DNA of 64,000 nucleotides from an uncultured Candidatus Bathyarchaeia archaeon. GTDB lineage: Archaea > Thermoproteota > Bathyarchaeia > Bathyarchaeales > Bathycorpusculaceae. The notes below the pieces were generated by a model that ran no database searches, was not told where the DNA came from, and worked only from the letters and a program-made list of their open reading frames with translations. Below are positions 4,876 to 60,618 of this stretch, piece after piece (within the stretch, counting starts at the first letter, position 1; each line of letters starts with the position of its first letter). A program made the position numbers and the translations under genes. The stretch spans positions 11,081-75,080 of the forward strand of contig CAZJBY010000005.1 in assembly GCA_964544495.1 (NCBI GenBank), written 5' to 3'.

Positions 4876-5000
4876 CTCAGGAGATACAACACTTGATTTT
4901 TCTTATTAGCGTTTGTGACTGGGCAACGTCAATCACAGCGGAGCATAGCACTTGCCACATAGTCAGCTATTTCAGAAAGCAGTGAGTTGTTAGTTGACTC

Positions 5001-5032
5001 TTTATATAAGGGGGGTATAGACTGTTCCGAGC
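5001..5032 (-). repeat. G6-TATAGAC intergenic cassette, copy 1 (subtype B)
   Basis: The + strand reads TTTATATAAGGGGGGTATAGACTGTTCCGAGC. Read on the - strand it starts 15 nt after the stop of the radical SAM gene. Confidence 0.8.
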
Positions 5033-9778: not shown

Positions 9779-10495
9779 GTGTGCTGTTTCAGCATGAAGC
9801 CTGATGTTAGTATTATAATTCCGACGTTGAATGAGGAAGTGGGTATTGTTGAGACTTTAAGGCAGATCAGTGAGTTGGGTGTTGGCTGGGAGGTTTTGGT
9901 TGTTGATGGGTTGTCGGAGGATGGCACTGTGAGAAACGCTGAGTTGTGTAGAGCTAGGGTTGTGTTTGAAAAGAGAAAGGGTAAAGGTGTTGCTATGGCT
10001 ACTGGGGTGAGAAATGCGAGGTCGGATGTTGTTTGTTTTATGGATGGTGATGGGACTTATCCTGCGAGGTTTATTCCGAAGATGTTGCGGTTGATAAGGA
10101 ACTGTGATGTTGTGGTTGCTTCTAGGTTGCTGAGGAAGGAGGGTGTTTACGGTTCTGTGAACACTTTTGTTCATTTTCGTTTTTTTCCTTTTGTTTTTAG
10201 GGGTTATTTGAGTAAATTTAAGACTTCTGAGCCGATAACGGGTATGAGGTTGATGCGGAAGGAGACGTGGGAAAAACTGGGTTTGAGGTCTCATGACTTT
10301 TTGATTGAGACAGAGATGGAGGTTGAGATGGCGAAGAACAAGATGCGGGTTATTGAAATTCCGATTCCCTGCATCAAAAGGTTGGGTCGTAGCAAGTGGG
10401 ATTCGAGTTTGGGGACTATGCTGAAAATCTGGAAGTACGTGAAGATGAATGAGCGGTACTTGCAGGATTTGCGGGTTATCCGGTATCTTGCTTAA
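9779..10495 (+). CDS. family 2 glycosyltransferase (dolichyl-phosphate sugar synthase-like)
   Basis: VSIIIPTLNEE...VVDGLSEDGT...DGDGTYP. The first ATG is at 9794. Confidence 0.75.
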   Translation: MCCFSMKPDVSIIIPTLNEEVGIVETLRQISELGVGWEVLVVDGLSEDGTVRNAELCRARVVFEKRKGKGVAMATGVRNARSDVVCFMDGDGTYPARFIPKMLRLIRNCDVVVASRLLRKEGVYGSVNTFVHFRFFPFVFRGYLSKFKTSEPITGMRLMRKETWEKLGLRSHDFLIETEMEVEMAKNKMRVIEIPIPCIKRLGRSKWDSSLGTMLKIWKYVKMNERYLQDLRVIRYLA

Positions 10496-10510
10496 AGGAT
10501 TGCTTGTTCC

Positions 10511-10556
10511 CGCTTAGAACTGTTGCGATTTTTTGTCTATACCCCCCTTATTTAAA
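10511..10556 (+). repeat. G6-TATAGAC cassette, copy 2 (subtype A with T6 run)
   Basis: CGCTTAGAACTGTTGCGATTTTTTGTCTATACCCCCCTTATTTAAA, starting 16 nt after the GT2 stop. Confidence 0.8.
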
Positions 10557-10650
10557 GGCGGAAGCACAGGTTGAATTTCTGCGCCGATACGGACCTATCC
10601 CTTATAGGTTTCTGCAACGAATCTCTATTAGACGGCAAATATGTTGGTCT
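10557..10650 (+). ncRNA. conserved non-coding module, short copy (candidate sRNA or leader)
   Basis: GATACGGACCTATCCCTTATAGGTTTCTGCA...CTATTAGACGGCAAATATGTTGGT aligns with the modules at 34.2 kb, 60.6 kb and 57.9 kb. It lies between convergent genes. Confidence 0.3.
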
Positions 10651-10688
10651 GGGCGCTTGCTGCTTTGCGGCGGGCAAGCCGTCTTTCT

Positions 10689-11036
10689 TTATGTTGGTGT
10701 TTTGGCGCAGTTGCCTGTTTCTTTGGAGTTTTCGACTGCGCGCTTCAGGTTTCTGCGGAACTGCTTCAGGTCAACTGAGCCGTTGATGATTTTGAGGAGT
10801 TTAAGCAGAACCAGTGTTTTTTCGTTTTCGTAATTCAGGCTGATGATTCGGTTGTGGCCAGCGTGTTGCTGCGTGACGACGCCTTCCTGTTCCAGAACGT
10901 GCAGGTTGCGGTTGACTTCGTTGTAGTTGCTGTTGGCGGCGCGCACCAGCTTCATCATGGTGACGTGCTTTTTCTCCGATAGTGCTGTCAGGATTTTTCG
11001 GCGGCACGCTGACGCCAGGATTTTGCTTTGCTTCAT
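10689..11036 (-). CDS. winged-helix (ArsR-like) transcriptional regulator
   Basis: 115 aa. RRKILTAL...MKLVRAANSNYNEVNRNLHVLEQEGVV matches the HTH plus wing pattern. Confidence 0.65.
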   Translation of the reverse strand: MKQSKILASACRRKILTALSEKKHVTMMKLVRAANSNYNEVNRNLHVLEQEGVVTQQHAGHNRIISLNYENEKTLVLLKLLKIINGSVDLKQFRRNLKRAVENSKETGNCAKTPT

Positions 11037-11286
11037 TGCGTGGTTGCCCCTGAATGGACAATTCAGTTATCCTTATTTGAATGGGACTAAGTTTGCGAAG
11101 TGAACTGGCTCCATGTTCATTGCACTCACCAGTTACTTCGTAAGACACCAGAAAGTTCTCTCTTATAAACAGTCTTATTAAACCGTTCAACACAAAAACA
11201 GACCGACGGGCGCGTTATGCTACTTAAATGGCAACCTTATTTTCTTGGCAGCTTCAAACTACCTTGTCTTTAGAGCTACCTTGTAA

Positions 11287-11647
11287 TTTTTTATTGTGTG
11301 GTCTTCTTTTTCTTGCGTTTTGTGAAGTACACTATGAGTGCGAGGCATATGGCTGTGGCTGATGCCACGGCGGAGGCGGCGATCAGTTGGCTTGTCGGGA
11401 GCTGCTCTGGCTCGGTTATGGTGAAGGTTGTGGTTTCTGAGTTGCCTGGGTTTCCGAACTGGTCCCAGCCGTAAACGGTCACGTTGTGGCTTCCCGCTGT
11501 CAACCCACTGAGCGTCGCGTTTCCGTTGATGGTGATGTTGTCTTGCGCGTCCAGGCTGTATTGCAGCTGTGAGGTTTTCTCGTTTGTTGTGAGCGTCAGC
11601 GCCACGTCCGACGTGGAGTACGCTTGTGGGTACGGCGCCAGGATTCC
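11287..11647. repeat. 361-bp perfect inverted repeat, partner of 45715-46075
   Basis: Base-by-base comparison shows it is the identical reverse complement. It covers the C-terminal Ig-like domain, TM anchor, stop codon and 4 nt beyond. Confidence 0.9.
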
Positions 11648-12181
11648 TATACGGAGAGGTTTTAGGTCTACCGCGAAATTGGCTGTTGAAGAACCATTTA
11701 TCATGAACCTTGCTCCTGTGTAAGGCTTTGTGTTAAGAACGTATTCGCCGTAATAGACCGCGGTGACCGTGAGAGAGAATGGACCCTGAGGTATCTCTTT
11801 CAGCTCAAACGTGCCAGAGAATTCTTCCCACACGAGCCCGTGAGGTAGGTCTTGGAAAACGTACACTTCGTCTTGCAGCCAGCTTGCCGAATAATAAACC
11901 TCGATAAGATTGCTAAGAACAATGTCCGGACCGTGTATTGGTGTGACAGTGTAGGTTATCTTGATTGGTGGCGAGGCATATTTGGTGCCATTCTGCAGGT
12001 TCAATATGGAGACCCTGGGCGGAGTGGTTGTTGATTCCGGAGCCACCCACCCCGAGTCTATCCACGGATTGGCTTTTGCAACGTTTACAAGCAGAGCCCC
12101 TGCCAAAGCCAAGATCAACAACACCGCTAGTAGTGTTGCTGTGATTTTTTTTATGTTGCCTGTGTTATTGGAGCTGAACAT
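11291..12181 (-). CDS. surface-protein family paralog (signal peptide, Ig-like domains, C-terminal TM plus basic tail)
   Basis: The ORF is open to 12199 (GTG). ATG 12181 gives MFSSNNTGNIKKITATLL..., which aligns with the paralog at 45176. YSLDAQDN..LSGLTAGSHNVTVYGWD motif. Ends ...IVYFTKRKKKKTTQ. Confidence 0.8.
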   Translation of the reverse strand: MFSSNNTGNIKKITATLLAVLLILALAGALLVNVAKANPWIDSGWVAPESTTTPPRVSILNLQNGTKYASPPIKITYTVTPIHGPDIVLSNLIEVYYSASWLQDEVYVFQDLPHGLVWEEFSGTFELKEIPQGPFSLTVTAVYYGEYVLNTKPYTGARFMINGSSTANFAVDLKPLRIGILAPYPQAYSTSDVALTLTTNEKTSQLQYSLDAQDNITINGNATLSGLTAGSHNVTVYGWDQFGNPGNSETTTFTITEPEQLPTSQLIAASAVASATAICLALIVYFTKRKKKKTTQ

Positions 12182-12245
12182 GTGACATTGCCCCTGCACT
12201 GGTTCTCCATTCAGAATTAAAGTGGGGGTTGTGTTTAAGGGGTTC

Positions 12246-12286
12246 TGTCAAGGTTTCTTGACCTGGCTTAGTCAACATTTCTTGAC
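12246..12286 (-). promoter_or_regulatory. dual-palindrome operator, copy 1
   Basis: TGTCAAGGTTTCTTGACCTGGCTTAGTCAACATTTCTTGAC, 64 nt upstream of ATG 12181. Confidence 0.7.
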
Positions 12287-12420
12287 CCATGGCTACTATT
12301 TGCTTTTATGGAAGCTTAAACTCTGTTTAGCTTCAGCTTTTTGGAAGCCAAGCTTGTTTTTCCTGCTATTCTGCGAAAACATGATAAGTCTGATGTTGGC
12401 AACATTGTGACCGATGCAAG

Positions 12421-13125
12421 GTGGTTTCGCCAACGAGAAGATTTGACTTCGGAAGAGAACTGCTGAAGATAATAGCAATCGCCACCATGGCAGTAGACCA
12501 CGTCGGCACCATTCTTTACCCTGACCTACTGTACCTCCGAATGATCGGCAGACTCGCCTTCCCCATATTCGCTTACCTCATAGTGTTAGGCGTGGAAAGC
12601 ACCAAGAAACCTCTAAAGTACATGGCAACGCTTCTCGTCTTCGCCATAATCTCCCAGCTTCCCTACTACCTCGCCTTCAACATCCAACCCTTTGAACGGC
12701 TGAACATACTCTTCTCGCTGCTGCTAAGCGCCGTAACAATATACTACTACAACAAAAGAAGCATGCTCGCGTTCCTCCCCCTCCTGCTCTCACTCATCCT
12801 CCCAACCGAAGGCAGCTACTACGTCGTGGTGACCGCGGTAGGCATGAAACTCCTAATGGACGCCCCAAAACTCGGCGCCCTCACCCTGTTCGCCCTCAAC
12901 ATCCAATTCCCCTCTCCCTTCCTCTACCCCGCCATCGAAGACCAAATCCAAATACTCGCGCTTCTCGCGGTGCCGCTGATTTTTCTCCACATAAAAGGCT
13001 CGATAAAAAAGGAAATCCTCATCCCCGAAAACTCCCTCGCCTACACAGCCAGAAAATACTTTTTCTACGTGTTCTATCCGCTACACCTGACGCTGCTGTT
13101 TCTGATAAGCACGTTTCTCTTTTAA
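12421..13125 (+). CDS. TraX-family membrane protein
   Basis: LKIIAIATMAVDHVG...GRLAFPIFAYLIVLG is the TraX signature. Polytopic. Confidence 0.7.
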   Translation: MVSPTRRFDFGRELLKIIAIATMAVDHVGTILYPDLLYLRMIGRLAFPIFAYLIVLGVESTKKPLKYMATLLVFAIISQLPYYLAFNIQPFERLNILFSLLLSAVTIYYYNKRSMLAFLPLLLSLILPTEGSYYVVVTAVGMKLLMDAPKLGALTLFALNIQFPSPFLYPAIEDQIQILALLAVPLIFLHIKGSIKKEILIPENSLAYTARKYFFYVFYPLHLTLLFLISTFLF

Positions 13126-28730: not shown

Positions 28731-29219
28731 TTGACTGGAAAAGCTGACGAACGCAAGTGCTTCGCTGTGGTGAAAGTTCGAGGAACAATCAGCGCTCAGC
28801 GTGAAGCCAGAGAAACCCTAGAGATGCTTCGTTTAGCCAAGACTAACAATGCAGTGCTCATTGACGACCGCCCTTCGTACATAGGCATGCTGTACCGCGT
28901 GCAGAACTACGTCACATGGGGAGAAGCGTCAAAAGAGATCGTGGCGTTGATGCTGCAGAAACGCGGAAGGCTTGCCGGCGGCAAGAAGTTAACAGATGAA
29001 GCGTTGGAGACGCTGGGTTACAAGTCGATAGACGCGCTCGCCGAAGCCATCGCAAGCTGCAAAGTGGAGTTCCAGAAGCTTCCGAACGTGCAGCCAGTGT
29101 TCAAGCTGCATCCCCCAAAGAAAGGCTTCAAAGGAAAAACCAAGAAAAGCTTTGCCGCAGGCGGCGAAGCAGGCTACCGCGGCGAAAAAATCAGCGAACT
29201 CATAAAACGCATGGCATAG
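28731..29219 (+). CDS. rpl30: 50S ribosomal protein uL30
   Basis: AVVKVRGTISAQREARETLEMLRL, plus operon position. TTG start. Confidence 0.85.
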   Translation: MTGKADERKCFAVVKVRGTISAQREARETLEMLRLAKTNNAVLIDDRPSYIGMLYRVQNYVTWGEASKEIVALMLQKRGRLAGGKKLTDEALETLGYKSIDALAEAIASCKVEFQKLPNVQPVFKLHPPKKGFKGKTKKSFAAGGEAGYRGEKISELIKRMA

Positions 29220-29371: not shown

Positions 29372-31327
29372 TTAACGCCTGCGTTTCTTGAAGTAGAATA
29401 GTATACCCGTAGTGACAGCAACTGCCGAAACTGCAACGGCGACCACGATGAAAGTTATTGGGAAAGGCTCTGACTCTGCTACTGTGAACGTGATTGTTTC
29501 GGAGGCTTCTACGTTGCCTGCCCCGTCCCAAGCGTACACTGTCAAAGTATGCTCGCCACTAGTCAGCCCAATCAGCGTTGTGTTCCCAGCCACTGTTACG
29601 TTGTCTTGTCCGTCTAAGCTGTACGCGACTTTCGAAAGAGTCTCGTTCACGTTGAAAACTAGTGACACATCAGGCGCGTCGTACGCTTTGGATTCTGGAG
29701 ACAAAATCAGAACACGCAGCGCCGTTTCTTCTGTGGGTTCTCCTGCTTCGTCGTCTATGTTTTCTGGGGTTTCTTCACGTGGCGGGGGAGTGCTTAGAGT
29801 GATGGCATCTGAGTACGTGATGGATTCTACACCTGCGTTGTCCCTGAATTGAACATAAACGGTTTTGGAGCCGTCGCCTGATGTAAGCGTCCAAACCTTA
29901 GTATCTGCGTAATCTTCCCAACCTGTCCAATTTATGCCGTCGTTGCTGAAGTGCATCTGAGCTACACCAGAAACGTCCTCTGCTGAGAGAGTTAAAACCA
30001 CTGAGCGTTGTCTGGTTGAGGCTGCGCCGCCATTAACCGTTATTGAACCTGTTGGAGGAGTTGTGTCAACGATGAAGTGTCTTGCGTGTGAAGCTTCTAT
30101 GTTGCCTAAGGTGTCGTTCGCATAAATAACCACGTAATGCCATCCGTCAGGCAAGTCGGGTAAAGTTGTGTTACCCGTGATTGTTGCATTTGGCTGCCCA
30201 TTTAAGCTGTAGCCAATCCAGCTGTCAAATCCATCAACCGTGAACGTTAAGGGAATCCTGGCGCTTACGTTGTATATCTTGTTTTGTTCTGGAGAAACAA
30301 CATTAACAGCAGGCGGCACGGGAACGTACCCAAAAGGCGTGTACCGTTCATTTGCGTCAGATAGACGCAACACGTTTTTGTCTTCTCCTCCTATCGCGTA
30401 TAAAAGGTCATCCACAACTGCAACACTCAAAAAGTGTCTTGGTGTAGGCATTTCTGCACCAACGCTCCATGTTTCCGTTTCAGTGTCAAAGACCTGAGTT
30501 AGCGGTCCACGTTTTATGAGCCCAGTTTCGGGGTCCACTTCATCGGAGTAAACGTTCCCTCCTATGAGGTAGATTTTTTTCGCCGCATAAACACCTGTTG
30601 TTGCCACTCCCGCCTCATAGGATACATGGTAAGACATGGAAGGCCCATAGCGCCACGTGTCTGTTTGGGGGTCGTAAATCTGGGTCTCATTGTTACCACT
30701 GCCTGTGTTTCCGAAAACGTAAATTTTGTTGTCTACAACAGCTGATATACAGTAAGCAACAGCAGTTGGGAGCGGGGCCATCGTGGTCCACGAATCATTA
30801 ACGGGATCATACATTTCATTTACATTTGAACGAAACGGGGTTCCAAGGAAAAAGGTGTCGAATCCACCTATGAGGTAGATTTTGCCGTTAACTGTGCATG
30901 CTGTTGCAGTGGTTCTCGGTGTAGGGCTTGGAGTTTTTGTTGCCCAAGAATCGGTCGCGGTGTTATAAACTTGGTTTAATTCCCATCCGAAACAATAAAT
31001 TTTGTTTTGGTAAACAGCTGCACCAGAACCACCGTCTACCGTGGCGCCATTAGGTTGTGGTATGGGGGTTTTGGTTGTCCAAGTGTTAGTTATGGGATCA
31101 TACATTTCGTTAACATCGGTGGCTCCTGACATTACTTGTCCTCCGATAGCGTATGTTCTTCCTCCAACTACGCCGATGCCGATTCCAGTTCTGGCCGTGG
31201 GCATAGAAGCCATAATTGCCCAAGAATTCTCTGCTTGATCTGCTAAGGCTGGCTTCACTGAAAGCGTGCCAGCCATGGCCGAAGTCAGCAACACCAACAC
31301 GATGACTGTAGCCAGCACCCTTTTCAT
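29372..31327 (-). CDS. Kelch-repeat surface protein of the paralog family
   Basis: Signal peptide, at least 5 Kelch-like blades (YAIGG, IYCFGW, IYLIGG, IYVFGN, LYAIGG), three Ig-like modules (YSLNGQPN..., YSLDGQDN...GEHTLTVYAWD), and EPFP-TM-FYFKKRRR. Confidence 0.8.
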   Translation of the reverse strand: MKRVLATVIVLVLLTSAMAGTLSVKPALADQAENSWAIMASMPTARTGIGIGVVGGRTYAIGGQVMSGATDVNEMYDPITNTWTTKTPIPQPNGATVDGGSGAAVYQNKIYCFGWELNQVYNTATDSWATKTPSPTPRTTATACTVNGKIYLIGGFDTFFLGTPFRSNVNEMYDPVNDSWTTMAPLPTAVAYCISAVVDNKIYVFGNTGSGNNETQIYDPQTDTWRYGPSMSYHVSYEAGVATTGVYAAKKIYLIGGNVYSDEVDPETGLIKRGPLTQVFDTETETWSVGAEMPTPRHFLSVAVVDDLLYAIGGEDKNVLRLSDANERYTPFGYVPVPPAVNVVSPEQNKIYNVSARIPLTFTVDGFDSWIGYSLNGQPNATITGNTTLPDLPDGWHYVVIYANDTLGNIEASHARHFIVDTTPPTGSITVNGGAASTRQRSVVLTLSAEDVSGVAQMHFSNDGINWTGWEDYADTKVWTLTSGDGSKTVYVQFRDNAGVESITYSDAITLSTPPPREETPENIDDEAGEPTEETALRVLILSPESKAYDAPDVSLVFNVNETLSKVAYSLDGQDNVTVAGNTTLIGLTSGEHTLTVYAWDGAGNVEASETITFTVAESEPFPITFIVVAVAVSAVAVTTGILFYFKKRRR

Positions 31328-32490
31328 GTGTCACTCCTTTTCCCTTTGCGCTTTAAGAAGTAGGTTACCAACCCGAGGGTGACCAAAGCGGCTGAAGCGA
31401 TTATGGCTGTGGAGATCCATTTTGGGAAAGGTGCTAAAGCTTGCTGAACAGGCGGAGTGGTCGTTTTCTGCGTGGGCGATTCGCTTGGTGAGGGAGTAGA
31501 AGACGAGGGTGATGGTGCCTTTGGTTCAGCGGGAGGCGTACTTATTGAAGGTAAAGACTTTTCGTTTGGAGCTAAAGTTACCTCCTGCAGTGCATCTCCA
31601 ACATCAAAAATTATCGTTTCTGATGCGCTGATGATTCCAGTTTCATACCAAACGTAAACCGTCACATTGTGGTGTCCAAAGGCTAATCCTGTAAGCAGTT
31701 CGCTCCCTGTAAAAACCTCTCTGGTGAACAGGTCTCTGCCAAGGACCTCTTCAATGTGGACAGCATTTATTGGAACAGTAACGTTTTCCTTCCCGTCCAG
31801 ACTGTAGGTGGCGTTTGAAACTGGGTAATCCATCGAAAACTCTAATTCCACATCAGTTACATTGTAACTTCGGTTTCTAGGAGAAACAACGTTGATTTCA
31901 GAGCCGTCGGTGACCATGAAGGTTATAGTACAAAGAGCCTGATAGAGAGTGTGTGCGTAAGCTATGTTTTCTTCGAGTGAGGGACCACAATAAATAGTTA
32001 GGTAATGCTGTCCTGCAGACAAAGCAGGCAAGATTGCTGTGCCTCTGATAAAATATATCGCGTATGTGCCGCCTTTCAGATAATTTGAAGGCACGGGCAC
32101 ATCCTCCTTTCTCAGGAGCGTTAAGTTAACTTCTCGCATGTCACTTCTCGGTTCAGTGATGATACTGCCGACCCGACCATCTGGCGCATAGGCTTGTTCT
32201 TCTCTCCACCCATCGCCAAACTTCAGGGTTGCCCGGTCGCTGATTGTAAGTTCGTCCAAAGTGAAGCAGTAACTTCCCCCATCAGGGGGAGGTCCATACG
32301 TGTTTTGCACTATAAACGACAAATAAACTGGGTTTTTTGTTGTTTCTTGTGGGAACTCCACTGAAATTGTAATGCAGCCTGGTGCCGCATAACCTGTGTC
32401 TCCCGCTACAAAAGGCTTTACCGAAAGTTCTCCAGCCAACGCTGAAAAAATCAACACCGCAAGCGCAGCTAAAGCGCAGGCTCTTCTCAT
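31324..32490 (-). CDS. surface-protein family paralog with an S/T/P-rich stalk
   Basis: Signal peptide, YSLDGKENVTV...GHHNVTVYVW, P/S/T linker, APFP-TM-YFLKRKGKR. ATGA overlap with the next gene. Confidence 0.75.
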   Translation of the reverse strand: MRRACALAALAVLIFSALAGELSVKPFVAGDTGYAAPGCITISVEFPQETTKNPVYLSFIVQNTYGPPPDGGSYCFTLDELTISDRATLKFGDGWREEQAYAPDGRVGSIITEPRSDMREVNLTLLRKEDVPVPSNYLKGGTYAIYFIRGTAILPALSAGQHYLTIYCGPSLEENIAYAHTLYQALCTITFMVTDGSEINVVSPRNRSYNVTDVELEFSMDYPVSNATYSLDGKENVTVPINAVHIEEVLGRDLFTREVFTGSELLTGLAFGHHNVTVYVWYETGIISASETIIFDVGDALQEVTLAPNEKSLPSISTPPAEPKAPSPSSSTPSPSESPTQKTTTPPVQQALAPFPKWISTAIIASAALVTLGLVTYFLKRKGKRSDT

Positions 32491-33278
32491 GTTTTATTCT
32501 TCCTCCTCTTGACTCTGGCAAAATAAGCTACAAACCCGAGAGTGACTATGGCAACTGAAGCGACTACGACTGTGGCGGAAAATACTGGGGAAGTTTCTGC
32601 TTGAGGTTCTGTTGGCTGGGTCGCCTGTTGCGTTTCTACTTTGAACGTGATTGGTTTGGATGTTCCTGTGGAGCCTGTGGTGTCTTCCGCGTGGACTGTT
32701 ATGGTGTGTGTTCCGTCTGGGATGCCGTAGAGGGTGGTGTTTCTGGTGATGGTGACGGGTGCTTGGTCGTCTAGGCTGTAGCTTAGCCAGTTGGTGGGTT
32801 CGGAGACGGAGAAGTTTAACTGGATCTTGGTTGTGTGGTAGGTTTCTGCTGGTTTGGGCTCCAGAACTGAGACGCGTGGCGCGGCGGCATTAACGGTGAA
32901 AACCACCTCGTTAGAGATACCCGAGGTCTCTACGATGCCCCATAGGGGGCCTAAATTGTAAGTAAGGTGAACACCTATGCGCAACCTATGAGTGCCTTCG
33001 GATAACTGTGTTGGCCAAGACTGCAATCTTCTGTCGTCCAGGATGTAAGTGCAATACTGGTTAGACAGCCATTTTGAGTAATCTGGCTCCGTCTCTACTG
33101 TGAAAGCCACGGGAACCTTGCTGCTACTGTACATTTTGCTTTCTGGAAGCTGAATTGTGACCGATGCTGGAGGTAGGTATGGCGTTGCATTCGCTGCTGC
33201 AAAATTAACGAGTAAGGCTCCAGCTAATGCTAAAAACAGTAGCGTTAACACAAAAACAACGGCGTAGACTCTTTTCAT
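32487..33278 (-). CDS. surface-protein family paralog
   Basis: Signal peptide LALAGALLVN, YSLDDQAPVTI...GTHTITVHAED, TM-AYFARVKRRKNKT. ATGA overlaps on both sides. Confidence 0.75.
   Translation of the reverse strand: MKRVYAVVFVLTLLFLALAGALLVNFAAANATPYLPPASVTIQLPESKMYSSSKVPVAFTVETEPDYSKWLSNQYCTYILDDRRLQSWPTQLSEGTHRLRIGVHLTYNLGPLWGIVETSGISNEVVFTVNAAAPRVSVLEPKPAETYHTTKIQLNFSVSEPTNWLSYSLDDQAPVTITRNTTLYGIPDGTHTITVHAEDTTGSTGTSKPITFKVETQQATQPTEPQAETSPVFSATVVVASVAIVTLGFVAYFARVKRRKNKT
32607..32912. repeat. 306-bp perfect direct repeat, partner of 59764-60069
   Basis: Identical sequence in both paralogs. It covers the C-terminal Ig-like domain only. Confidence 0.9.
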
Positions 33279-34081
33279 GATGCGCTCCTCTTTTTATTGC
33301 GCCGAACAAAGTACGCTACCAGCCCAAAAGAAATTACTACAGTTGAAATGACTATGGCAATAGCAATCAAGGTTGTTGCTAAAGGGGTGGGGATGTTCAC
33401 GTCAAAGGTCGCCTTCTCGGATGCGCCTGTGTTTCCAGCCTCATCACTGGCGTACAAGACAAGCGTGTGCCTGCCACTCGACAAGCTAGCCAAAGTAGCG
33501 TTGCTAGTTATTGACACGTTCTTCATGTCATCAAGACAGTAGACCATTTGAGAAGCAGGCTCACTCAACGTAAACGTCAACGTCACGTCAGATGCGATGT
33601 ACAATGATGGCTCAGGGGACAAAATCTTGACTCTCGGTCGAATAGCGTCAATTGTGAAGGTTACAGCACTGGAATACCCCTCGTAACTGGGGATTTTCCA
33701 TTCACCGATTTCTTGCCAAGTTGTCACTCGGATAGTCAGATTGTGGACGCCATTGGACAATCCTGATAACGTTGTACTGTACGCTGAGCCGTTGAATTCT
33801 AGAGAGAAAGCCACAACTTCCTTTTTATCCAACACGTAGCTGTATTCTGGCGACTGCAACTCAATGGAGCTGCCAGTTGATGACGTGTACATGAAGGCTA
33901 CTGAAACGGTTTGAGGGTATGTCCTGTTATTTTGTGGTGACACCACGTTGACATTCAACTGGAAGTCGTCTCCCATTGCCAAATCAGTAAAAAAATTTCC
34001 AGCTAATGCTGAAATCAGAAAAGCAGAGAGTAGAGTTACCATCAGGATTTTACTTTTACCGCGTAAACTCTTGCCAAGCAT
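33275..34081 (-). CDS. surface-protein family paralog (first gene of the four-gene operon)
   Basis: ATG at 34081 (TTG at 34084). Signal peptide, VYCLDDMKNVSI...GRHTLVLYASDEAGN, TM-AYFVRRNKKRSAS. Confidence 0.75.
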   Translation of the reverse strand: MLGKSLRGKSKILMVTLLSAFLISALAGNFFTDLAMGDDFQLNVNVVSPQNNRTYPQTVSVAFMYTSSTGSSIELQSPEYSYVLDKKEVVAFSLEFNGSAYSTTLSGLSNGVHNLTIRVTTWQEIGEWKIPSYEGYSSAVTFTIDAIRPRVKILSPEPSLYIASDVTLTFTLSEPASQMVYCLDDMKNVSITSNATLASLSSGRHTLVLYASDEAGNTGASEKATFDVNIPTPLATTLIAIAIVISTVVISFGLVAYFVRRNKKRSAS

Positions 34082-34148
34082 CAATCGTAATGCCCCTTTG
34101 TTTATTCTCCGTGGTAATTCTAGGTTTTCTGTGTGTTATAGCCTTTTT

Positions 34149-34189
34149 TGTCAAGGTTTCTTGACCCAGCTTAGTCAACATTTCTTGAC
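34149..34189 (-). promoter_or_regulatory. dual-palindrome operator, copy 2
   Basis: TGTCAAGGTTTCTTGACCCAGCTTAGTCAACATTTCTTGAC, 67 nt upstream of ATG 34081. CTATAACACACAG lies between the two. Confidence 0.7.
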
Positions 34190-34195
34190 TAAACC

Positions 34196-34333: not shown

Positions 34334-34378
34334 TTTATATAAGGGGGGTATAGACAAAAAAACGCAACAGTTCTAGCG
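34334..34378 (-). repeat. G6-TATAGAC cassette, copy 4 (subtype A with T7 run)
   Basis: The + strand reads TTTATATAAGGGGGGTATAGACAAAAAAACGCAACAGTTCTAGCG, in the divergent region between the surface operon and hsp20-rpl15-secY. Confidence 0.8.
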
Positions 34379-34466
34379 CAATCAAACCAACAGAAAAAAT
34401 CTTGGCGGCTTTGCGATACATTTTAAAGTTACGTTGGAAATGCCATTGTATCTAGGAGACGCAAAG

Positions 34467-34904
34467 ATGAGTGCGAAATGGAGGAGATGCAAAAAGCGCC
34501 TGAAGTGGCTAGACACGGCTAGTCCAGAAAGGATCGACGCCAACAACCGCTGCAGGATACTCCGCATCGAAACCACGCGAACCGCAAGGTCAGCTCCTCC
34601 ATACTACAGATCATCAAAAAACTACGCGAAACGAAAATGGAAAGCGCCAAAACCACTCATCGACATTTTCCAAGAAAAAAACTGGATAACCATCGTCGCC
34701 GAAATCGCAGGCTTTAATAGGGAAACCCTAAAGATAAATGTGAAAGACCAGAAACTAACACTATCTGCAAAAGCAAAAGACCGCAGATACTACAAAAGCT
34801 TAAATCTACCCAAAGTAGTGGTTCCAAACGCCGTCCACACCACCTACAAAAACGGCGTCCTCGAAATCAAACTTAAAAAAGCACCAAAAGAAAAAGGAAT
34901 CTAA
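34467..34904 (+). CDS. Hsp20/alpha-crystallin-domain protein with a basic N-terminal region
   Basis: DIFQEKNWITIVAEIAGFNRETLKINVKDQKLTLSAKA...TYKNGVLEIKLKK. The ORF is open from 34434. ATG 34467 follows GGAGA. The stop lies 6 nt before rpl15. Confidence 0.7.
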   Translation: MSAKWRRCKKRLKWLDTASPERIDANNRCRILRIETTRTARSAPPYYRSSKNYAKRKWKAPKPLIDIFQEKNWITIVAEIAGFNRETLKINVKDQKLTLSAKAKDRRYYKSLNLPKVVVPNAVHTTYKNGVLEIKLKKAPKEKGI

Positions 34905-34910
34905 AAGAAC

Positions 34911-35333
34911 ATGCCACACAAACTAAGAAAAACCAGAAAAATGCGCGGCAGCCGAACACACGGCTACGGCAGAATAGGCCAACACAGAGACGCAGGTTCA
35001 AAAGGACATCGAAAAGTCGGACGCCACAAGCATTTGTGGAGCTACGTTGTGACACATGAACCCGACTACTTCGGCAAAAAAGGCTTCACGTCACCCCAAA
35101 GCCTAAAACGCAAAGAAAACACCATCAACCTCAAACAACTCAACAACTTAGCCGTTGAAAAGGACACCGCAAACGTAAACCTGACAAGCCTAGGCTACAC
35201 CAAACTCCTCGGCACAGGCAAAATCGCAAAACCCCTGACCATAACCGTACCTTCATGCTCCAAATCCGCAGCAGAAAAAATAAAAAAAGCTGGCGGAAAA
35301 ATCCTAACCCAGTCCAAGGAAAACGGAGAGTAG
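34911..35333 (+). CDS. rpl15: 50S ribosomal protein uL15
   Basis: KLRKTRKMRGSRTHGYGRIGQHR...KLLGTGKI. Confidence 0.9.
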   Translation: MPHKLRKTRKMRGSRTHGYGRIGQHRDAGSKGHRKVGRHKHLWSYVVTHEPDYFGKKGFTSPQSLKRKENTINLKQLNNLAVEKDTANVNLTSLGYTKLLGTGKIAKPLTITVPSCSKSAAEKIKKAGGKILTQSKENGE

Positions 35334-35342
35334 CATTAATCA

Positions 35343-36758
35343 ATGGCTGGAAGATTCCTAAGCCTCTTCAAACCGCTCGGAAGAGTACTGCCTGAAATCA
35401 AAGTCCCCGAACGCAAAGTCGGCTTCAACGAAAAAATCTTCTGGACCGCCATAGTCCTCATCGTCTACCTCGTCATGTCCGAAATCACACTCTACGGAAT
35501 CTCCAGCACAGTAACAGACCGATTCAGCCAACTAAGAGTAATCTTCGCCTCAAACCGCGGCACCCTCATGGAACTCGGCATAGGCCCCATAGTCACCGCA
35601 GGCTTAATCCTGCAACTGCTATCCGGCTCCGCCATCATACAATGCGACATGTCCGATCCTCAAGACAGAGGCTTGTTCACCGTCGCAAGCAAATTCTTCT
35701 CTATACTTCTCACGGGAATCCAAGCGTCAGCTTACATAATAAGCGGCATGTACGGCAGCCTAGCAGGACCCACGACAATAGTCATCTTCATACAGCTTTT
35801 AGGCGCTGGAATAATCGTGATGCTCATGGATGAGCTTGTGCAGAAAGGCTGGGGACTAGGCAGCGGAATCAGCCTCTTTATCATGGCTGGGGTTGCGCAG
35901 AACATTCTCTGGCAAGCGTTTAATCCTGGCACTGGCTTGTTTGTGGGTTCGCTTTCTACGCTTTTGCGGGGTCAACAATCGTATGGATTAACGGAGTGGA
36001 TACTTGGCGCAGGGTCTTATCCGTCTTTGCTTGGGTTCATAGCGACGATCGGCACGTTCCTGATAATTATTTACTTGGAAGGTGTCAGGGTTGAGTTGCC
36101 GATGACCTACGCTGGGTACAAGGGGTTCCGCAGTCGCTATCCAATCAAGCTCTTGTACGTGTCAAACCTTCCAGTTATTTTCGCGTCTGCGCTTTTCGCT
36201 AATGTTTACTTCTTTTCTCAGCTTCTGTGGAGCCAGATGGGTGCACCTGCTCCTGGGACGAACATTTTCTTCCAGTTTTTAGGCGATTATAGTCAAAACG
36301 CTACGACAGGGACTGTGACGCCTGTTGGCGGTTTAGCTTATTATGTAACTCCACCTCAAAATATTATCAGCGTAGCGGCTGAGCCTATACGGGCTTCGGT
36401 TTATTTGGTTATTCTTGTGGCTTTCTGCGCGGTGTTTTCGCTTATTTGGCTTGAGGTTGGCGGTCTTGGACCTGATAAAGTTGCTAAACAGCTTATGGAT
36501 TCAGGTATGCAGATTCCTGGTCACAGGCGTTCTGGAAGGCCTATTCAGGCGATTCTTAAACGGTATATTCCTGTGGTTACGGTTCTCGGCGGATTAATCG
36601 TAGGTTTGATTGCTGGACTTGCGGATTTCCTAGGGGTTTTCGGTACAGGAACAGGAATCCTGCTTTCGGTGGGCATAATTTACCAGTACTACGAGTTGCT
36701 GATGCGTGAAAGAGCAGCGGAGATGTTCCCAGCTTTCAGAAGAATCCTAGGCGAATAG
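35343..36758 (+). CDS. secY: preprotein translocase subunit SecY
   Basis: 471 aa with 10 TM helices. IFASNRGTLMELGIGPIVTAGLILQLL. Follows L15. Confidence 0.93.
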   Translation: MAGRFLSLFKPLGRVLPEIKVPERKVGFNEKIFWTAIVLIVYLVMSEITLYGISSTVTDRFSQLRVIFASNRGTLMELGIGPIVTAGLILQLLSGSAIIQCDMSDPQDRGLFTVASKFFSILLTGIQASAYIISGMYGSLAGPTTIVIFIQLLGAGIIVMLMDELVQKGWGLGSGISLFIMAGVAQNILWQAFNPGTGLFVGSLSTLLRGQQSYGLTEWILGAGSYPSLLGFIATIGTFLIIIYLEGVRVELPMTYAGYKGFRSRYPIKLLYVSNLPVIFASALFANVYFFSQLLWSQMGAPAPGTNIFFQFLGDYSQNATTGTVTPVGGLAYYVTPPQNIISVAAEPIRASVYLVILVAFCAVFSLIWLEVGGLGPDKVAKQLMDSGMQIPGHRRSGRPIQAILKRYIPVVTVLGGLIVGLIAGLADFLGVFGTGTGILLSVGIIYQYYELLMRERAAEMFPAFRRILGE

Positions 36759-36773
36759 CCGTAAGACTATAGC

Positions 36774-36806
36774 GCTCGGAACAGTCTATACCCCCCTTAT
36801 TTATAG
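36774..36806 (+). repeat. G6-TATAGAC cassette, copy 5 (subtype B)
   Basis: GCTCGGAACAGTCTATACCCCCCTTATTTATAG starts 16 nt after the secY stop. A partial inverted copy GGGGTATAGAA lies at 36824-36834. Confidence 0.8.
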
Positions 36807-36896
36807 AGTTAACTTGGTTTTGCGGGGTATAGAATAGTTGCCTGGAAATATTAGCAAAGCTTTTGAGCCTAACTGCCTGTACTAGCACGGTTACTA

Positions 36897-42775: not shown

Positions 42776-43039
42776 ATGATTCCGAACCTGACTGCAATTA
42801 TCATAATAATTATAACAACCCCCCTTCTCATAATTATCACGTTCTTACCTGCTTTTATTGAACTAAAAAAGCCAAAAGACGGAGGTCCACGAATGATAAC
42901 AGCGGAAATTCCTGAAGTGAACAGGCACATAAAGCATTTCATTCCCATCGCTAATATTGAAGATGAACAAAAATTCGACAGTTCGCTGATACAAGCATTG
43001 GCAAAGACCATCGCAGTTTTACCGAGCTTGGAAGTTTAG
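42776..43039 (+). CDS. small membrane protein
   Basis: 87 aa. N-terminal Ile-rich TM plus a soluble tail. Starts 25 nt after the synthase stop. Confidence 0.4.
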   Translation: MIPNLTAIIIIIITTPLLIIITFLPAFIELKKPKDGGPRMITAEIPEVNRHIKHFIPIANIEDEQKFDSSLIQALAKTIAVLPSLEV

Positions 43040-43047
43040 GGGCTTCT

Positions 43048-44079
43048 CTATATGAAAAGCTTGGCGTTTTTCCACTGATCTTTAGCCAGCGCCAGATTTC
43101 CGTAAGGGCTTCCGTAAAGCGAATAAAAAATGTAGCACAGATAGGCGCACTGTGTACATTCATTGTAAGTTTGGCGTAGCAACTCGAATTTTTTGCTGTT
43201 CCATATTTTGGGTAAATCAAACACTGAACCTGCGAAATTATGACTATGGCAACCCGCGATTCTGCCCAGATGGTCTATGACGAGAAAGTTCTGAAGCGCA
43301 CGGCAGTTCCACGTTCTTTTGCCCTCTTGAAAATATGTTCTAAGCACCTTCAACAACTTGGTCGTCATTAGAATTCTCCTGTTCTTCTTTTTCATCTCGA
43401 GTAGAGTATCGCAAAGCTTAACCATAGCCTGCCTGTCCTTTATGATGAACTCGTCATTTGCTTTTCCGATTCTAAAAAGCTGGTTTACGTCGCTAGTTTG
43501 GTCGTAAGAATAGAGGCAGTACCAAACTGGGATTCCTTTCTGAGTGAAGTAGTTTGTGATGTCCACGATTTCGTAAAGGTTCAGCTGCGAGATTGTGGGT
43601 GTTACGCTTACGTTTATTCCTTCGTTGTGCAGTGTTTCCACGGCTTCCATGGCTTTTCTCCAGGCGCCTGGAACAGCTTTTATGTAATCATTTTTGGCTT
43701 CGTCTAAGCTGTCTATTGAAATTGCCACAAAATCCACGTTTCGCAAAGCCTCAAGGTTTTTCTTGGCCATGCTGCCGTTGTCGTACACGGTGGTTATGAA
43801 AAGATTTGAAGCGTACTCGATTATTTCGGGAGCATCCTTTCTTAAAAGCGGGTCTCCCCCAGAGATCACAAGCTCTACAATGCCCAGGTCCTTCAAAATG
43901 TCCAGTCCCCGCTTTATCTCTTCGGTGGATAATTCTCTCTGGTCTTGTTCTTTCCAGACGTTGCAGCCCCTGCAGCGGTAATTGCATTTCCTCGTGATCA
44001 TCCACTGGGCATGATGGGGTCTGTTAGGCGTTAGCGCGCTTATGGCTATTCTGGAGGCTTTTCGCAATTTTATAGTCAA
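43048..44079 (-). CDS. radical SAM protein with a SPASM/twitch-like C-terminal Cys cluster
   Basis: CNYRCRGC (CxxxCxxC), GGDPLL. C-terminal C-x19-C ... CTQCAYLC. Confidence 0.7.
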   Translation of the reverse strand: MTIKLRKASRIAISALTPNRPHHAQWMITRKCNYRCRGCNVWKEQDQRELSTEEIKRGLDILKDLGIVELVISGGDPLLRKDAPEIIEYASNLFITTVYDNGSMAKKNLEALRNVDFVAISIDSLDEAKNDYIKAVPGAWRKAMEAVETLHNEGINVSVTPTISQLNLYEIVDITNYFTQKGIPVWYCLYSYDQTSDVNQLFRIGKANDEFIIKDRQAMVKLCDTLLEMKKKNRRILMTTKLLKVLRTYFQEGKRTWNCRALQNFLVIDHLGRIAGCHSHNFAGSVFDLPKIWNSKKFELLRQTYNECTQCAYLCYIFYSLYGSPYGNLALAKDQWKNAKLFI

Positions 44080-44286
44080 ATGTTAAGCACCATGTACGTC
44101 GATTGCGGCTGTTTTAATAGACTTAGCCCACACTTATATAAGTCATGAGGCAAAAAAGGGCGAAACTTTCGGGAATTGCTAAAAATGCAGATTTTTGTTG
44201 CCTGAAGAATTAGCTGATGTCTTGTAGTTTTATATAATGTGTTATTAAGAATCTTAATTAAGAAAATGGGTGGTTCAATAGTGAAT

Positions 44287-45027
44287 ATGCGCGTGGACGT
44301 TGTCTTAATTACAAAAAACAGTGAACGCCTGCTCAACGAATGCCTCAAGTCTGTGTATGAAAACGTTCCAGTCAACCGCCTAATAGTTGTCGATGGGTAT
44401 TCAACCGACAGGACATTGGAAATAGTGCGTCAGTTTCAGAAGAAACATGGAAACGTTTTGGTGATACAAGACAAAGGGACTCGTGCCACTGCGAGACAAA
44501 AAGGCATAAACCAGGTGAAAACCGAATGGTTCATGTTCGTTGATAGTGACGCGGTTCTTTGTAAGGACTGGTTCAAGAGAGCCGAGACACACTTGGGTGA
44601 GAACGTGGGCGCTGTCTGGGGAATCGAAGTTTGGTCTACAATAAAAAACCCTGTGGTTCTTAAACTGTTTTTGTTGGTAACGCGTAAAATCTTTGACCTT
44701 CGCGGTGGAACTCATGACACTCTTATCCGCACAGAACTTGTTAAAGACATAGAAATCCCGAAGGTCCTCCATGTTTTTGAGGACGCTTATATCAAGGATT
44801 GGATAATGCGAAAAGGGTACAAGCTGATTGCATGCTACAATCCATACTGCGTTCATCACAGGCCTGACAGCGTCTGGACTATTAGGGGTAGCTTAAACAT
44901 AATAGCCGATGCGATAAGGGCGGGCAGACTAACCTTGCTCATTAAATTGGCACTTGCCTACGGCTTCTACACGGCGTACTCGCTGTATCGATTTATCGGG
45001 GCTAATATAAGACGCGGAGGGACTTAG
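44287..45027 (+). CDS. family 2 glycosyltransferase, paralog of 49115-49891
   Basis: MRVDVVLITKNSERLLNECLKSVYENVPVNRLIVVDGYSTDRT...FVDSD. The ORF is open from 44239. Confidence 0.75.
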   Translation: MRVDVVLITKNSERLLNECLKSVYENVPVNRLIVVDGYSTDRTLEIVRQFQKKHGNVLVIQDKGTRATARQKGINQVKTEWFMFVDSDAVLCKDWFKRAETHLGENVGAVWGIEVWSTIKNPVVLKLFLLVTRKIFDLRGGTHDTLIRTELVKDIEIPKVLHVFEDAYIKDWIMRKGYKLIACYNPYCVHHRPDSVWTIRGSLNIIADAIRAGRLTLLIKLALAYGFYTAYSLYRFIGANIRRGGT

Positions 45028-45069
45028 TTTTAACGCTGTTTTTATCGCTCAATCCTGCTGGAACTGTTA

Positions 45070-45110
45070 GTCAAGAAACCTTGACTAAGCCAGGTCAAGA
45101 AACCTTGACA
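45070..45110 (+). promoter_or_regulatory. dual-palindrome operator, copy 3
   Basis: GTCAAGAAACCTTGACTAAGCCAGGTCAAGAAACCTTGACA, the reverse complement of the other copies, 65 nt upstream of ATG 45176. Confidence 0.7.
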
Positions 45111-45234
45111 AAAACTCTTAAATCGAACGCGAGTCTTTAATTTTATAAGAGGAATGAGCACAGAGGCAACATAAGATGTTCCTCTCCCAAAAGCCAGACA
45201 ACACAAAAAAACCTTCACAGCAACACTAGTCACA

Positions 45235-46071
45235 GTGCTGTTGACCTTGGTCTTAGCGTGGAGTCTGCTTGTAAACATAACAGAAGCCGACCCTATTTTA
45301 GACATGGGAGAAGTGCCTCCGAAATCGACAGCGGTCCCGCCAACAGTACTCATCCTGGACCCTCAAAACAACACTACAACCAGCACATCCAACATCTGGC
45401 TCGCTCTCAAAATTACCCCTGCGCGAGACCCTATCGCCAGGAGGCGGTGTAATCTTGTTGAAGTTTATTATTCGGCAAGCTGGCAACCGAACAAAGTGAC
45501 TGTTTTCAACGATGACGCTGGCGGATATGTGGTAGACGTTTGGCAAAATGAAATTGAACTGAAAAAGATACCGCAAGGCGTAAACTCCGTGACAGTTACA
45601 GCGGTTTATTATGGAGAATATTATCCTTACAAGTATCCCTACGCAGAAGCCTATTTCACGATAAGCGGTTCTTCAACCGTTACTTTTGCCGTAGACCTCA
45701 CCCCGCTCCACATCGGAATCCTGGCGCCGTACCCACAAGCGTACTCCACGTCGGACGTGGCGCTGACGCTCACAACAAACGAGAAAACCTCACAGCTGCA
45801 ATACAGCCTGGACGCGCAAGACAACATCACCATCAACGGAAACGCGACGCTCAGTGGGTTGACAGCGGGAAGCCACAACGTGACCGTTTACGGCTGGGAC
45901 CAGTTCGGAAACCCAGGCAACTCAGAAACCACAACCTTCACCATAACCGAGCCAGAGCAGCTCCCGACAAGCCAACTGATCGCCGCCTCCGCCGTGGCAT
46001 CAGCCACAGCCATATGCCTCGCACTCATAGTGTACTTCACAAAACGCAAGAAAAAGAAGACCACACAATAA
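45235..46071 (+). CDS. surface-protein family paralog, with the N-terminus out of frame with its ATG (A7 tract)
   Basis: The ORF from GTG 45235 aligns with 11291-12181. The homologous ATG 45176 is in the +2 frame and would join if the A7 run (45205-45211) were A8. Confidence 0.7.
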   Translation: MLLTLVLAWSLLVNITEADPILDMGEVPPKSTAVPPTVLILDPQNNTTTSTSNIWLALKITPARDPIARRRCNLVEVYYSASWQPNKVTVFNDDAGGYVVDVWQNEIELKKIPQGVNSVTVTAVYYGEYYPYKYPYAEAYFTISGSSTVTFAVDLTPLHIGILAPYPQAYSTSDVALTLTTNEKTSQLQYSLDAQDNITINGNATLSGLTAGSHNVTVYGWDQFGNPGNSETTTFTITEPEQLPTSQLIAASAVASATAICLALIVYFTKRKKKKTTQ

Positions 46072-46075
46072 AAAA
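45715..46075. repeat. 361-bp perfect inverted repeat, partner of 11287-11647
   Basis: Identical reverse complement, verified by eye across the tract. Confidence 0.9.
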
Positions 46076-46122
46076 GCACCCTGTTTTTACCCGGAAAAAG
46101 AAGGGTTTGTTTTCGTTTTCGC

Positions 46123-47430
46123 TTAGTAGTAGTCTGTGTAGTACCACGCTATTATCGTTTCGTCATCAGTTATCGACAGGGTCACCGGATTGTCATAATA
46201 GGTGGGCCCGTAGAAAACTTCGTAATAGCAGAAGACGTGGATATACGGATAATCATAGAGAGGCGTGTCCACTTCTATCTTGTGGTTTCCGTCCGACACC
46301 GTAATGGAGTAGCCGTCTGTGAGCCCCATGTACTCGTCGTCAACATAATACGGCACTGCGCCTTGCTGGTACTGATCATAGGCGAGCACCGTCAAAGAGT
46401 GCTGCTTGTCCCTGAAAACCGCTCGCAACGTGTAATCCTCGTCCATGTAAACCCCTATGGTTGGGTTCGTGCCGGCGGGGTCGCCGTCCAAGAGCCAGTG
46501 GTCAAAGATGTGGTCGCCGTCTGCTGTGGCGGTGACGTACGCGGTTTCTGTAGGCGCGTAATAATAGGTGCCTGAAGCGTTGGTGGTGCCTCCTGCTCCA
46601 GCTGAAACAGACAGGCTTAGCTCATCATAATAGTAAGCCATAACATCTGTCTCCCAGTTTGAACTACAGTACACGGTTATGGGGTTTTCATACAGCGGAT
46701 AATCATCGAAATGCCTGAAACCGGAGCCGCTGGTGGTCCATAAATCTACTTCAACGGTGTGGTTACCAGGCGCTACATCCTTGACTACGTACATGTAGCC
46801 TGTGTTGCCTGCGTACGCGCCGTCTATCCAAACGTCTGCGTCGGCAATATCCCAAGTTCCAGTCCATTCCGCTGCTAAAACCTTCAAGGAGCAAATTGTC
46901 AAACGGAGGTTACCGTTACCGTAGACACGCATATGACCAGAATACCAGCCTTTACCCATTCCCGGACCAAAATTGACAGGCCACCACGTTTCATATCCAG
47001 TGTAAAGTGGGCTTTCGTCATAGCTCTTTGAAAAAACATCTGATGAAGCCAAGTTTAAGGCTTCGCGTATGGTGTAGCCTTCGTTCAGTGTGTAATTATA
47101 GAATTGTATGATGAAGTCCATACCAAGCCCTGTGTAGTTCTTGAAGTTCCCTCCAGTTGTATTGCCTAAGGTTGGGGAGGCACCAGAGAAGCCTATATAG
47201 CAATGACTGCCATAAGCGTCAGGGTCTGCATAGCCGTCATCGCTCATGCCTGCAGTGTCAGTCCAAGCTGAAGGCATCCCAGTGGTGTACGGCCAGTTTT
47301 GTGCGCTCTTACATGTCCATATCCACGCAAAGAAAGTCTCGCCATCCGTCCGCGATGCAATATCAGGATAATCGACATAGTCCCCATTTATGCCTCCGTT
47401 ATTGCCCTGATAACAATTACTGCCATTCAT
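46123..47430 (-). CDS. C-terminal part of a split secreted protein: putative Cys-peptidase-like region plus beta-rich repeat domains
   Basis: No signal peptide. FFAWIWTCKSAQ and MRVYGNGNLRL resemble the caspase/gingipain-fold layout. DHWLLDGDPAG...YTLRAVF is an InlB-B-repeat-like module. Homology continues upstream of the ATG in the same frame (DYVTVFHFGH). Confidence 0.5.
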   Translation of the reverse strand: MNGSNCYQGNNGGINGDYVDYPDIASRTDGETFFAWIWTCKSAQNWPYTTGMPSAWTDTAGMSDDGYADPDAYGSHCYIGFSGASPTLGNTTGGNFKNYTGLGMDFIIQFYNYTLNEGYTIREALNLASSDVFSKSYDESPLYTGYETWWPVNFGPGMGKGWYSGHMRVYGNGNLRLTICSLKVLAAEWTGTWDIADADVWIDGAYAGNTGYMYVVKDVAPGNHTVEVDLWTTSGSGFRHFDDYPLYENPITVYCSSNWETDVMAYYYDELSLSVSAGAGGTTNASGTYYYAPTETAYVTATADGDHIFDHWLLDGDPAGTNPTIGVYMDEDYTLRAVFRDKQHSLTVLAYDQYQQGAVPYYVDDEYMGLTDGYSITVSDGNHKIEVDTPLYDYPYIHVFCYYEVFYGPTYYDNPVTLSITDDETIIAWYYTDYY

Positions 47431-47461
47431 GTGTCCGAAGTGAAATACAGTAACGTAATCT

Positions 47462-48871: not shown

Positions 48872-49114
48872 TTTCGTTTTTCACCTCCTGTTAAATTAGG
48901 GAAAGAAGTTTTCTCCCTGGTTCTTCTTTTAGGTGTTCCAAGTATATAAGCAAGACGAAATATTTCGGAAGTAGGAAACTCAAAGCGAAAACACACTTTA
49001 TCATAACCTCCGCTGTTCTCTTTTGGAAACGGATAAATTCTTATTTTCAATCTGTCCATTACATTAAAGTCTATTGAGGCGCAACACTTTGTCAAAACTG
49101 AAAGGAGCACAATT

Positions 49115-49891
49115 ATGCAGCCGATAGATGTCGTAGTTCTTACAAAGAACAGTGAACACTTACTTGACAGGTGCTTAGCCTCAGTCTACGAAAACGTGCC
49201 CGTTAAAAACCTGATAATAGTTGACGGCTTTTCAACCGACCGCACCCTGAAAATCATAAACGACGTCAGTGAAGCACACGGCAACGTGGAAATCCTGAAG
49301 GTCAACGGTTCAAGAGCTAAAGCACGAGAGAAAGGCATACGACATGTGAGCACGGACTGGTTCATGTTCGTGGACAGCGATGTGGTGCTCAGCCGAGACT
49401 GGCTTAGAAAAGCCGAAAAAAACGTGAAGAGCGATGTTGGCGCGGTCTGGGGAGTAAACATCGACCTCATCCCTAACGTGAGAGACAAGCGGGTTCTAAA
49501 GTTGCAGAGCATAATTGCTCGGCAATGCTTTGGTCTCCGAGGCGGAATGCACGACACGCTTATCCGCCGCGAGGCTGTGGCGGGAATAAGAATCCCTGAA
49601 GAGCTGCATGCGTATGAAGACGCGTACATAATCAACTGGATCAAAGCGAAAGGCTACAAGACGGTAATCGGTGACGAAGTTTACTGCCTACATTTCAAGC
49701 CGCCGGCGAATTGGAGCTTGCAGAACGGGGTTTCGCAGGCTATTGTCGAATTCAAATGCGGAATTGTTTACTCTCACCTGTATGAGTATATGTTCTTTTA
49801 CCCAGTTTTCATGTTTCAATGGTTCATCCAGCTGTCCCTTCACGGCACCAAAGCATTATTCTCGCCTCAGCGCGGTCCAAAGATGATCTGA
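49115..49891 (+). CDS. family 2 glycosyltransferase, paralog of 44287-45027
   Basis: MQPIDVVVLTKNSEHLLDRCLASVYENVPVKNLIIVDGFSTDRT...FVDSD. Confidence 0.75.
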   Translation: MQPIDVVVLTKNSEHLLDRCLASVYENVPVKNLIIVDGFSTDRTLKIINDVSEAHGNVEILKVNGSRAKAREKGIRHVSTDWFMFVDSDVVLSRDWLRKAEKNVKSDVGAVWGVNIDLIPNVRDKRVLKLQSIIARQCFGLRGGMHDTLIRREAVAGIRIPEELHAYEDAYIINWIKAKGYKTVIGDEVYCLHFKPPANWSLQNGVSQAIVEFKCGIVYSHLYEYMFFYPVFMFQWFIQLSLHGTKALFSPQRGPKMI

Positions 49892-60474: not shown

Positions 60475-60540
60475 CTTCCTTAATGCTCCTGCGCTTATGC
60501 GCATTTTAAACTAAGTTTTTCTGTGTGTTATAGGCTTTTT

Positions 60541-60581: not shown

Positions 60582-60618
60582 TAACTTTTTCTGAACATGG
60601 AACAAGGCGTGAACACAT

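Follow-up and report, generated by a model that had tools for sequence, protein, structure and literature searches.

How do two paralogous genes, lying 34 kb apart on opposite strands and diverged over most of their length, come to share a stretch of DNA without a single difference? The question is raised by the window analysed here (the whole stretch of 64,000 nucleotides, taken from the MAG of an uncultured Bathyarchaeia archaeon), for which the original prediction had announced an exact inverted match of 361 bp. Its description of the tract proved right in every detail that we checked.

The tract and the two genes that carry it

By comparing positions 11287-11647 with the reverse complement of positions 45715-46075, we found all 361 of the 361 nucleotides to be equal (zero mismatches), and the MAG (2.135 Mb in 90 contigs) holds no longer dispersed exact repeat. 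In arm 1 (R; 11287-11647, minus strand) lie the 3'-terminal 118 codons of gene A with its stop codon and the 4 nucleotides that follow, and in arm 2 (R'; 45715-46075, plus strand) the same parts of gene B. The content foreseen for the tract (last Ig-like module, transmembrane (TM) anchor, stop codon and 4 nt) agrees with the open reading frames and with an AlphaFold model. Gene-upstream of the tract the identity between A and B falls off in the way that had been claimed, from 100% to 85% over the next ~50 nt, then to 66%, to 59% and finally to the random level (about 62% overall); past the other end, which the tract reaches 4 nt after the TAA codon, the flanking sequences show no relationship (about 24% identity). 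The A-B alignment counts 894 sites, 203 of them different, and its longest uninterrupted identical stretch measures 360. When the differences were permuted 10,000 times, no permutation came up to this length, the maximum being 56.

Gene A (11291-12181, minus strand) encodes 296 aa from an ATG at 12181, and its product begins with a signal/N-terminal helix, continues with two tandem Ig/FN3-like beta-sandwich domains and ends in a TM anchor followed by a KRKKKK tail. The AlphaFold model (22 homologues, pLDDT 83) shows an N-terminal helix, beta-sandwich domains at residues 41-171 and 178-255, and a C-terminal TM helix at residues 263-294; residues 179-296, which are encoded by the tract, make up the whole of domain 2 and the anchor. 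This order of parts, in which a signal sequence and a C-terminal TM anchor enclose a pair of beta-sandwich domains, is that of tandem Ig/FN3-like surface adhesin-type proteins, and the top Foldseek matches were tandem FN3/BIg modules (3pdd at 1.7e-8; SiiE 2yn5) from adhesins and glycoside hydrolases. The Pfam matches to Ig_J and Big_13 were weak, neither NCBIfam nor a PDB sequence search returned a curated family for the A and B proteins, and the NCBIfam sorting-signal models (PGF-CTERM and similar) gave no CTERM match at E <= 0.1. The C-terminal module is present in 41 ORFs of the MAG and in dozens of ORFs per same-genus genome. A and B belong to a family of exported surface proteins of Bathyarchaeia with about 41 members, each composed of a signal peptide, Ig/FN3-like domains in tandem and, at the C terminus, a conserved TM anchor with a basic tail. 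No close orthologue of A or B was found among the GTDB species representatives, the best same-genus match reaching 39%.

Gene B (45176-46071, plus strand) has an open frame of 278 aa from a GTG at 45235. Its ATG at 45176 (MFLSQKPDNTKK) does not share the reading frame of the rest of the gene, owing to a run of seven adenines (A7) at 45205-45211, where gene A has eight (A8). The A7 run of gene B is also present in an independent JGI contig (L025, described below), and the A8 run of gene A in two other contigs (L021 and L022); since an independent contig repeats the A7, the frameshift is probably real. Gene B would then be one of three things: a pseudogene, a gene that uses the GTG start, or a gene in a slippage-off state.

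Both genes are preceded by the same dual-palindrome element (GTCAAGAAACCTTGAC in two boxes, the second starting 24 nt from the start of the first), located at 12234-12286 (minus strand) for gene A and at 45066-45122 (plus strand) for gene B. Upstream of surface-protein genes it also occurs at 34145-34192 and 60537-60585. Allowing for up to 2 mismatches, we counted 32 such boxes in the MAG versus 1 in a reversed-sequence control, and Logan contigs were seen to break inside the element.

Origin of the shared 3' module

The original prediction had read the sharp boundary between identical and diverged sequence as the hallmark of recent gene conversion, and this reading gained support from several sides. 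Within the tract, third-codon identity is 1.00 between A and B and 0.67 between either of them and a third paralog (gene C, on contig C18), and upstream of the tract it is 0.49 between A and B; the 4 non-coding nucleotides past the stop are identical too. Gene C reaches only 75% identity in the tract. The nearest relative shifts along the alignment columns (B and C about 80% at 230-430; A and C 90% at 430-480; A and B 100%, with C at 75%, at 675-1034), the three paralogs being mosaics of one another. The 5' end of the tract coincides with the domain 2 boundary of the structural model and sits in a hinge (SGSSTxxFAVDLxPLRIG) that is conserved across the paralogs; the hinge segment lies just upstream of the tract boundary (11648-11720, minus strand), the paralogs are locally similar there, and exchange breakpoints fall within it. 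Ectopic gene conversion is recognised by identity that exceeds the flanks far beyond chance, by homogenised synonymous and non-coding sites, and by phylogenetic incongruence with a third sequence, all of which were found here. We consider a recent event of this kind between A and B likely, and the best explanation of the tract; its mechanism (RadA-type homologous recombination) and the coexistence of both copies in one genome are what we infer.

The same data bear on the readings that purifying selection at the nucleotide level, or a very recent duplication of the whole gene, accounts for the identity. The C-terminal module is indeed the most conserved part of the family, but the contrast between third-codon positions (fully identical between A and B, two-thirds identical against C) rules out selection as the cause, and the identity takes in the non-coding nucleotides as well. 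The 5' two-thirds of the genes, at about 62% identity, indicate that the A/B duplication is old. On the third-codon pattern and the diverged 5' two-thirds both readings were rejected, and we hold either to be extremely improbable.

Under gene conversion, non-reciprocal homologous recombination would have overwritten the 3' module of one gene (domain 2, anchor and stop codon) with that of the other. One end of the event would lie in the locally conserved inter-domain segment, and the other where the homology between the paralogs gives out, 4 nt beyond the stop codon. As the tract stops where the homology stops, and textbook two-ended conversion needs homology beyond that point, a one-ended event completed by end joining may have been involved.

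A sister population suggests the direction of the transfer. Its contig L134 (JGI 3300057040) is a mosaic, in which the 5' two-thirds of the gene are 90-98% identical to paralog C, the distal 3' end is 92-93% identical to R, and the downstream flank (contiguous with the R-like 3' end) is 90-98% identical to flank X of the window. Flank X carries a gene for a 115-aa ArsR/HVO_A0114-like wHTH regulator (10689-11036, minus strand), which lies downstream of A in the MAG, in L021 and in L134, and downstream of B in L025 and L026. On this comparison the R-X junction is presumably ancestral, which makes A, at the X locus, the likely donor; the transfer thus probably ran from A to B, with gene B as the likely recipient. 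Mosaic boundaries in sister populations, proposed in the original prediction as a check, were found in L134 and in L135 (JGI 3300057004), which carry the same 3' half and wHTH flank behind unlike 5' halves (C18-type or other), the breakpoint falling in the same inter-domain hinge as the tract boundary. Module exchange at the hinge thus also takes place beyond this genome.

The pattern also recurs within the MAG, where about 21 dispersed exact tracts measure 100 nt or more. A second one in the window (306 nt, direct orientation) pairs 32607-32912 with 59764-60069, in the family genes 32487-33278 and 59644-60504; it spans the Ig-like domain only, and its flanks are diverged on both sides. An exact tract of 286 nt pairs 48682-48967 with C17:36617-36902, and corresponds to the 5' end and upstream region of a gene for a 469-aa secreted protein and of its 60%-identical paralog on contig C17, where a paralog of the neighbouring 435-aa gene is also found. 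Window positions 10523-10641 have a 119-nt exact copy on contig C10, and intergenic modules that combine a TATA-like box with a G6 run and TATAGAC recur at 10515-10556, 34334-34375, 4992-5032 and 36774-36814.

Linkage of the tract and the 34-kb segment between its copies

The contig ends of the MAG overlap by exactly 55 nt, which points to a short-read de Bruijn assembly with a final k of 55, and the 361 nt of the tract exceed both this k and the read length. An assembly artefact could have arisen either as a chimeric path through a shared graph node or by the collapse of similar 3' ends to one consensus; a bubble-popping assembler working at k=55 could raise an identity of about 98-99% to 100%.

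Public contigs from other assemblies bear on this point. The tract stands between the 5' part of A and flank X (A5'-R-X) in L021 (Logan SRR8556600; window 10774-12275, 100% identity) and in L022 (JGI 3300036936; window 11146-12451, 1 mismatch, outside R). Behind the 5' part of B, again followed by flank X (B5'-R-X), it was found in L025 (JGI 3300031364; 43012-46075 joined to the reverse complement of 10499-11286) and in L026 (JGI 3300031354; 45233-46075 joined to the reverse complement of 10137-11286), both with 0 mismatches. In the MAG, R' is followed by flank Y, which holds a 435-aa InlB B-repeat-like gene (46123-47430, minus strand). This flank is covered by L023 (Logan SRR9700626; window 46046-48138), in which it is joined to the last 30 nt of R' and which ends k-1 = 30 nt inside R, and by L024 (JGI 3300031371; window 46077-47542), which ends at the tract boundary. 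All four tract boundaries hence occur in independent public assemblies, which argues that the tract is no artefact of this one assembly.

In favour of an artefact, the contigs disagree about the sequence that follows R in gene B (L025 and L026 have X, and the MAG, the only place where the B5'-R-Y linkage was seen, has Y), others break at the R boundaries, and L021 passes unbranched through R, so that in run SRR8556600 the second copy is either absent or too thinly covered. Against it, the full R was recovered with zero differences behind A5' in two assemblies and behind B5' in two others (different pipelines and samples), k-mers of the R/Y junction are present in the Logan data, the bin contains no orphan alternative 3' end, and the closely spaced mismatches that adjoin the tract on its upstream side were left uncollapsed. 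L023 and L024 end as contigs do where a true repeat makes the graph branch. We regard an artefact as quite improbable, and at most a few SNPs could have been masked.

With gene conversion as the preferred origin of the tract, its two copies may also affect the chromosome between them. The 34-kb segment between the inverted arms (11648-45714) contains genes for TraX, an acyl-CoA synthetase, HypF, the ribosomal-protein (r-protein) operon, SecY, a surface-gene cluster, glycosyltransferases and a radical-SAM protein. The original prediction had placed the r-protein operon between the arms, and its genes are indeed located there (uS3, uS17, uL14, uL24, eS4, uL5, uL6, uL18 and uS5), together with SecY. 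The minus-strand surface-protein cluster (29372-34084; a Kelch protein and three Ig/TM genes) sits between the r-protein gene 28731-29219 on one side and the operon genes 34434-35333 and SecY (35343-36758) on the other; in several other Bathyarchaeia the distance between those operon genes is no more than about 0.5-1.5 kb. At the arm 2 side, gene B forms an island (45100-48900) with the 435-aa and 469-aa genes (its two neighbours, 46123-48871) between the paralogous glycosyltransferase genes 44239-45027 and 49115-49891, which are directly adjacent in every relative examined.

Inverted identical copies would provide a substrate for inversion of this segment, and crossing-over between them had been predicted to flip the intervening 34 kb. 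An active inversion, the isomers of which coexist or alternate among natural populations, appears possible to us, if somewhat doubtful. One half of the prediction found its counterpart in the public contigs, since L025 and L026 carry the expected junction (I2-B5'-R-X) with 0 mismatches to the window segments; L021, L022 and the MAG carry A5'-R-X, and no sample yielded conflicting contigs. The other half did not, as the reciprocal junction (A5'-R-Y) never appeared in the look-ups, and mis-resolution by the assembler could account for the first: metaSPAdes can pick an extension by coverage filtering alone, and two low-coverage JGI assemblies could have made the same wrong join. Neither protein would be altered by the inversion. 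The synteny of other genomes also sides with the MAG, for the gene order running from the r-proteins and SecY through 39854, 40340, 41471, 43048, 44239, 49115, 49856 and onward is kept from genus to class, in >30 Bathyarchaeia MAGs. Because this conserved order matches that of the MAG, the MAG orientation is ancestral, and the form found in L025 and L026, if real, would be derived. The arm 1 side is uninformative for synteny, its exterior (GT 9779) and interior genes (TraX, acyl-CoA synthetase and HypF) being on different contigs in 4/4 relatives.

A programmed, site-specific inversion switch (inverton or shufflon-like), with the repeats acting as recombinase sites, would also fit inverted repeats that lie in surface-protein genes and of which one recombinant junction is present in public contigs. 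However, contig C5 (which carries the window) gave no match to PF00589 (tyrosine recombinase) and the whole MAG none to PF00239 (serine recombinase), the repeats are 361 nt of coding sequence and not short sites, and neither the coding sequences nor the promoters of the two genes would be changed by inversion. For lack of a linked recombinase, and given the repeat length and the intact ORFs, such a switch was rejected; we deem it exceedingly unlikely. From the same two recombinase searches it follows that any inversion would proceed by general recombination.

Module exchange among known systems

Crenarchaeal chaperonin paralogs are one known instance of gene conversion. Ectopic conversion and concerted evolution of prokaryotic paralogs have been described for the duplicated mtrA genes of methanogens (PMC4632066), and concerted evolution is recurrent across prokaryotes (PMC6053082). 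The locus resembles such cases in that a segment of two paralogs is homogenised (synonymous sites included) between sharp boundaries, and in that the tree of the segment conflicts with the tree of the flanks. It differs from the mtrA-type cases in that the family is a large, uncharacterised one of surface proteins from an uncultured archaeon, in that the tract coincides with a single structural module (domain 2 and anchor) and extends to the limit of homology, and in that its copies, inverted at a distance of 34 kb, enclose the r-protein operon. Thus, while ectopic conversion among prokaryotic paralogs (archaea included) is well documented, what is new here is a very clean, module-precise case in an uncharacterised Bathyarchaeia surface-protein family.

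Inverted rRNA operons or IS copies, and long inverted repeats, are known to give rise to inversions through homologous recombination (PMC12199158, PMC5065196). In common with them, identical inverted repeats flank a chromosomal segment in the window and a recombinant junction occurs in some assemblies; in contrast to them, the repeat consists of only 361 nt of coding sequence, and one of the two recombinant junctions was found, in assembled contigs.

Surface variation by gene conversion from cassettes is carried out by Neisseria pilE/pilS and Borrelia vlsE. The Bathyarchaeia genes share with these systems a multigene surface family, variable and constant modules, and exchange at conserved junctions, and gene B (by its frameshift) may be silent. 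They differ in that neither a dedicated expression site nor high-frequency switching nor immune-type selection was in evidence, and in that the module copied is the constant anchor and not the variable one. A broader view would be that the Ig/TM family as a whole is shaped by recombination-driven module shuffling, in which variable N-terminal domains and a constant domain-2/anchor cassette are swapped at the hinge, yielding coexisting inversion isomers that flip the 34-kb r-protein segment; in this full form we think it unlikely, and put it forward as speculation.

In an uncultured lineage of archaea, the locus provides a clean and statistically well-founded case of gene conversion with domain precision, and it shows that a cell-surface gene family of the Bathyarchaeia evolves through the exchange of segments among its paralogs. 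Tracts of this kind cause short-read MAG assemblies to break or to be joined wrongly, and the public contigs already differ on the linkage at this site. If the inversion junction is real, a coding repeat of 361 nt would suffice to create structural polymorphism around the r-protein operon in wild archaea.
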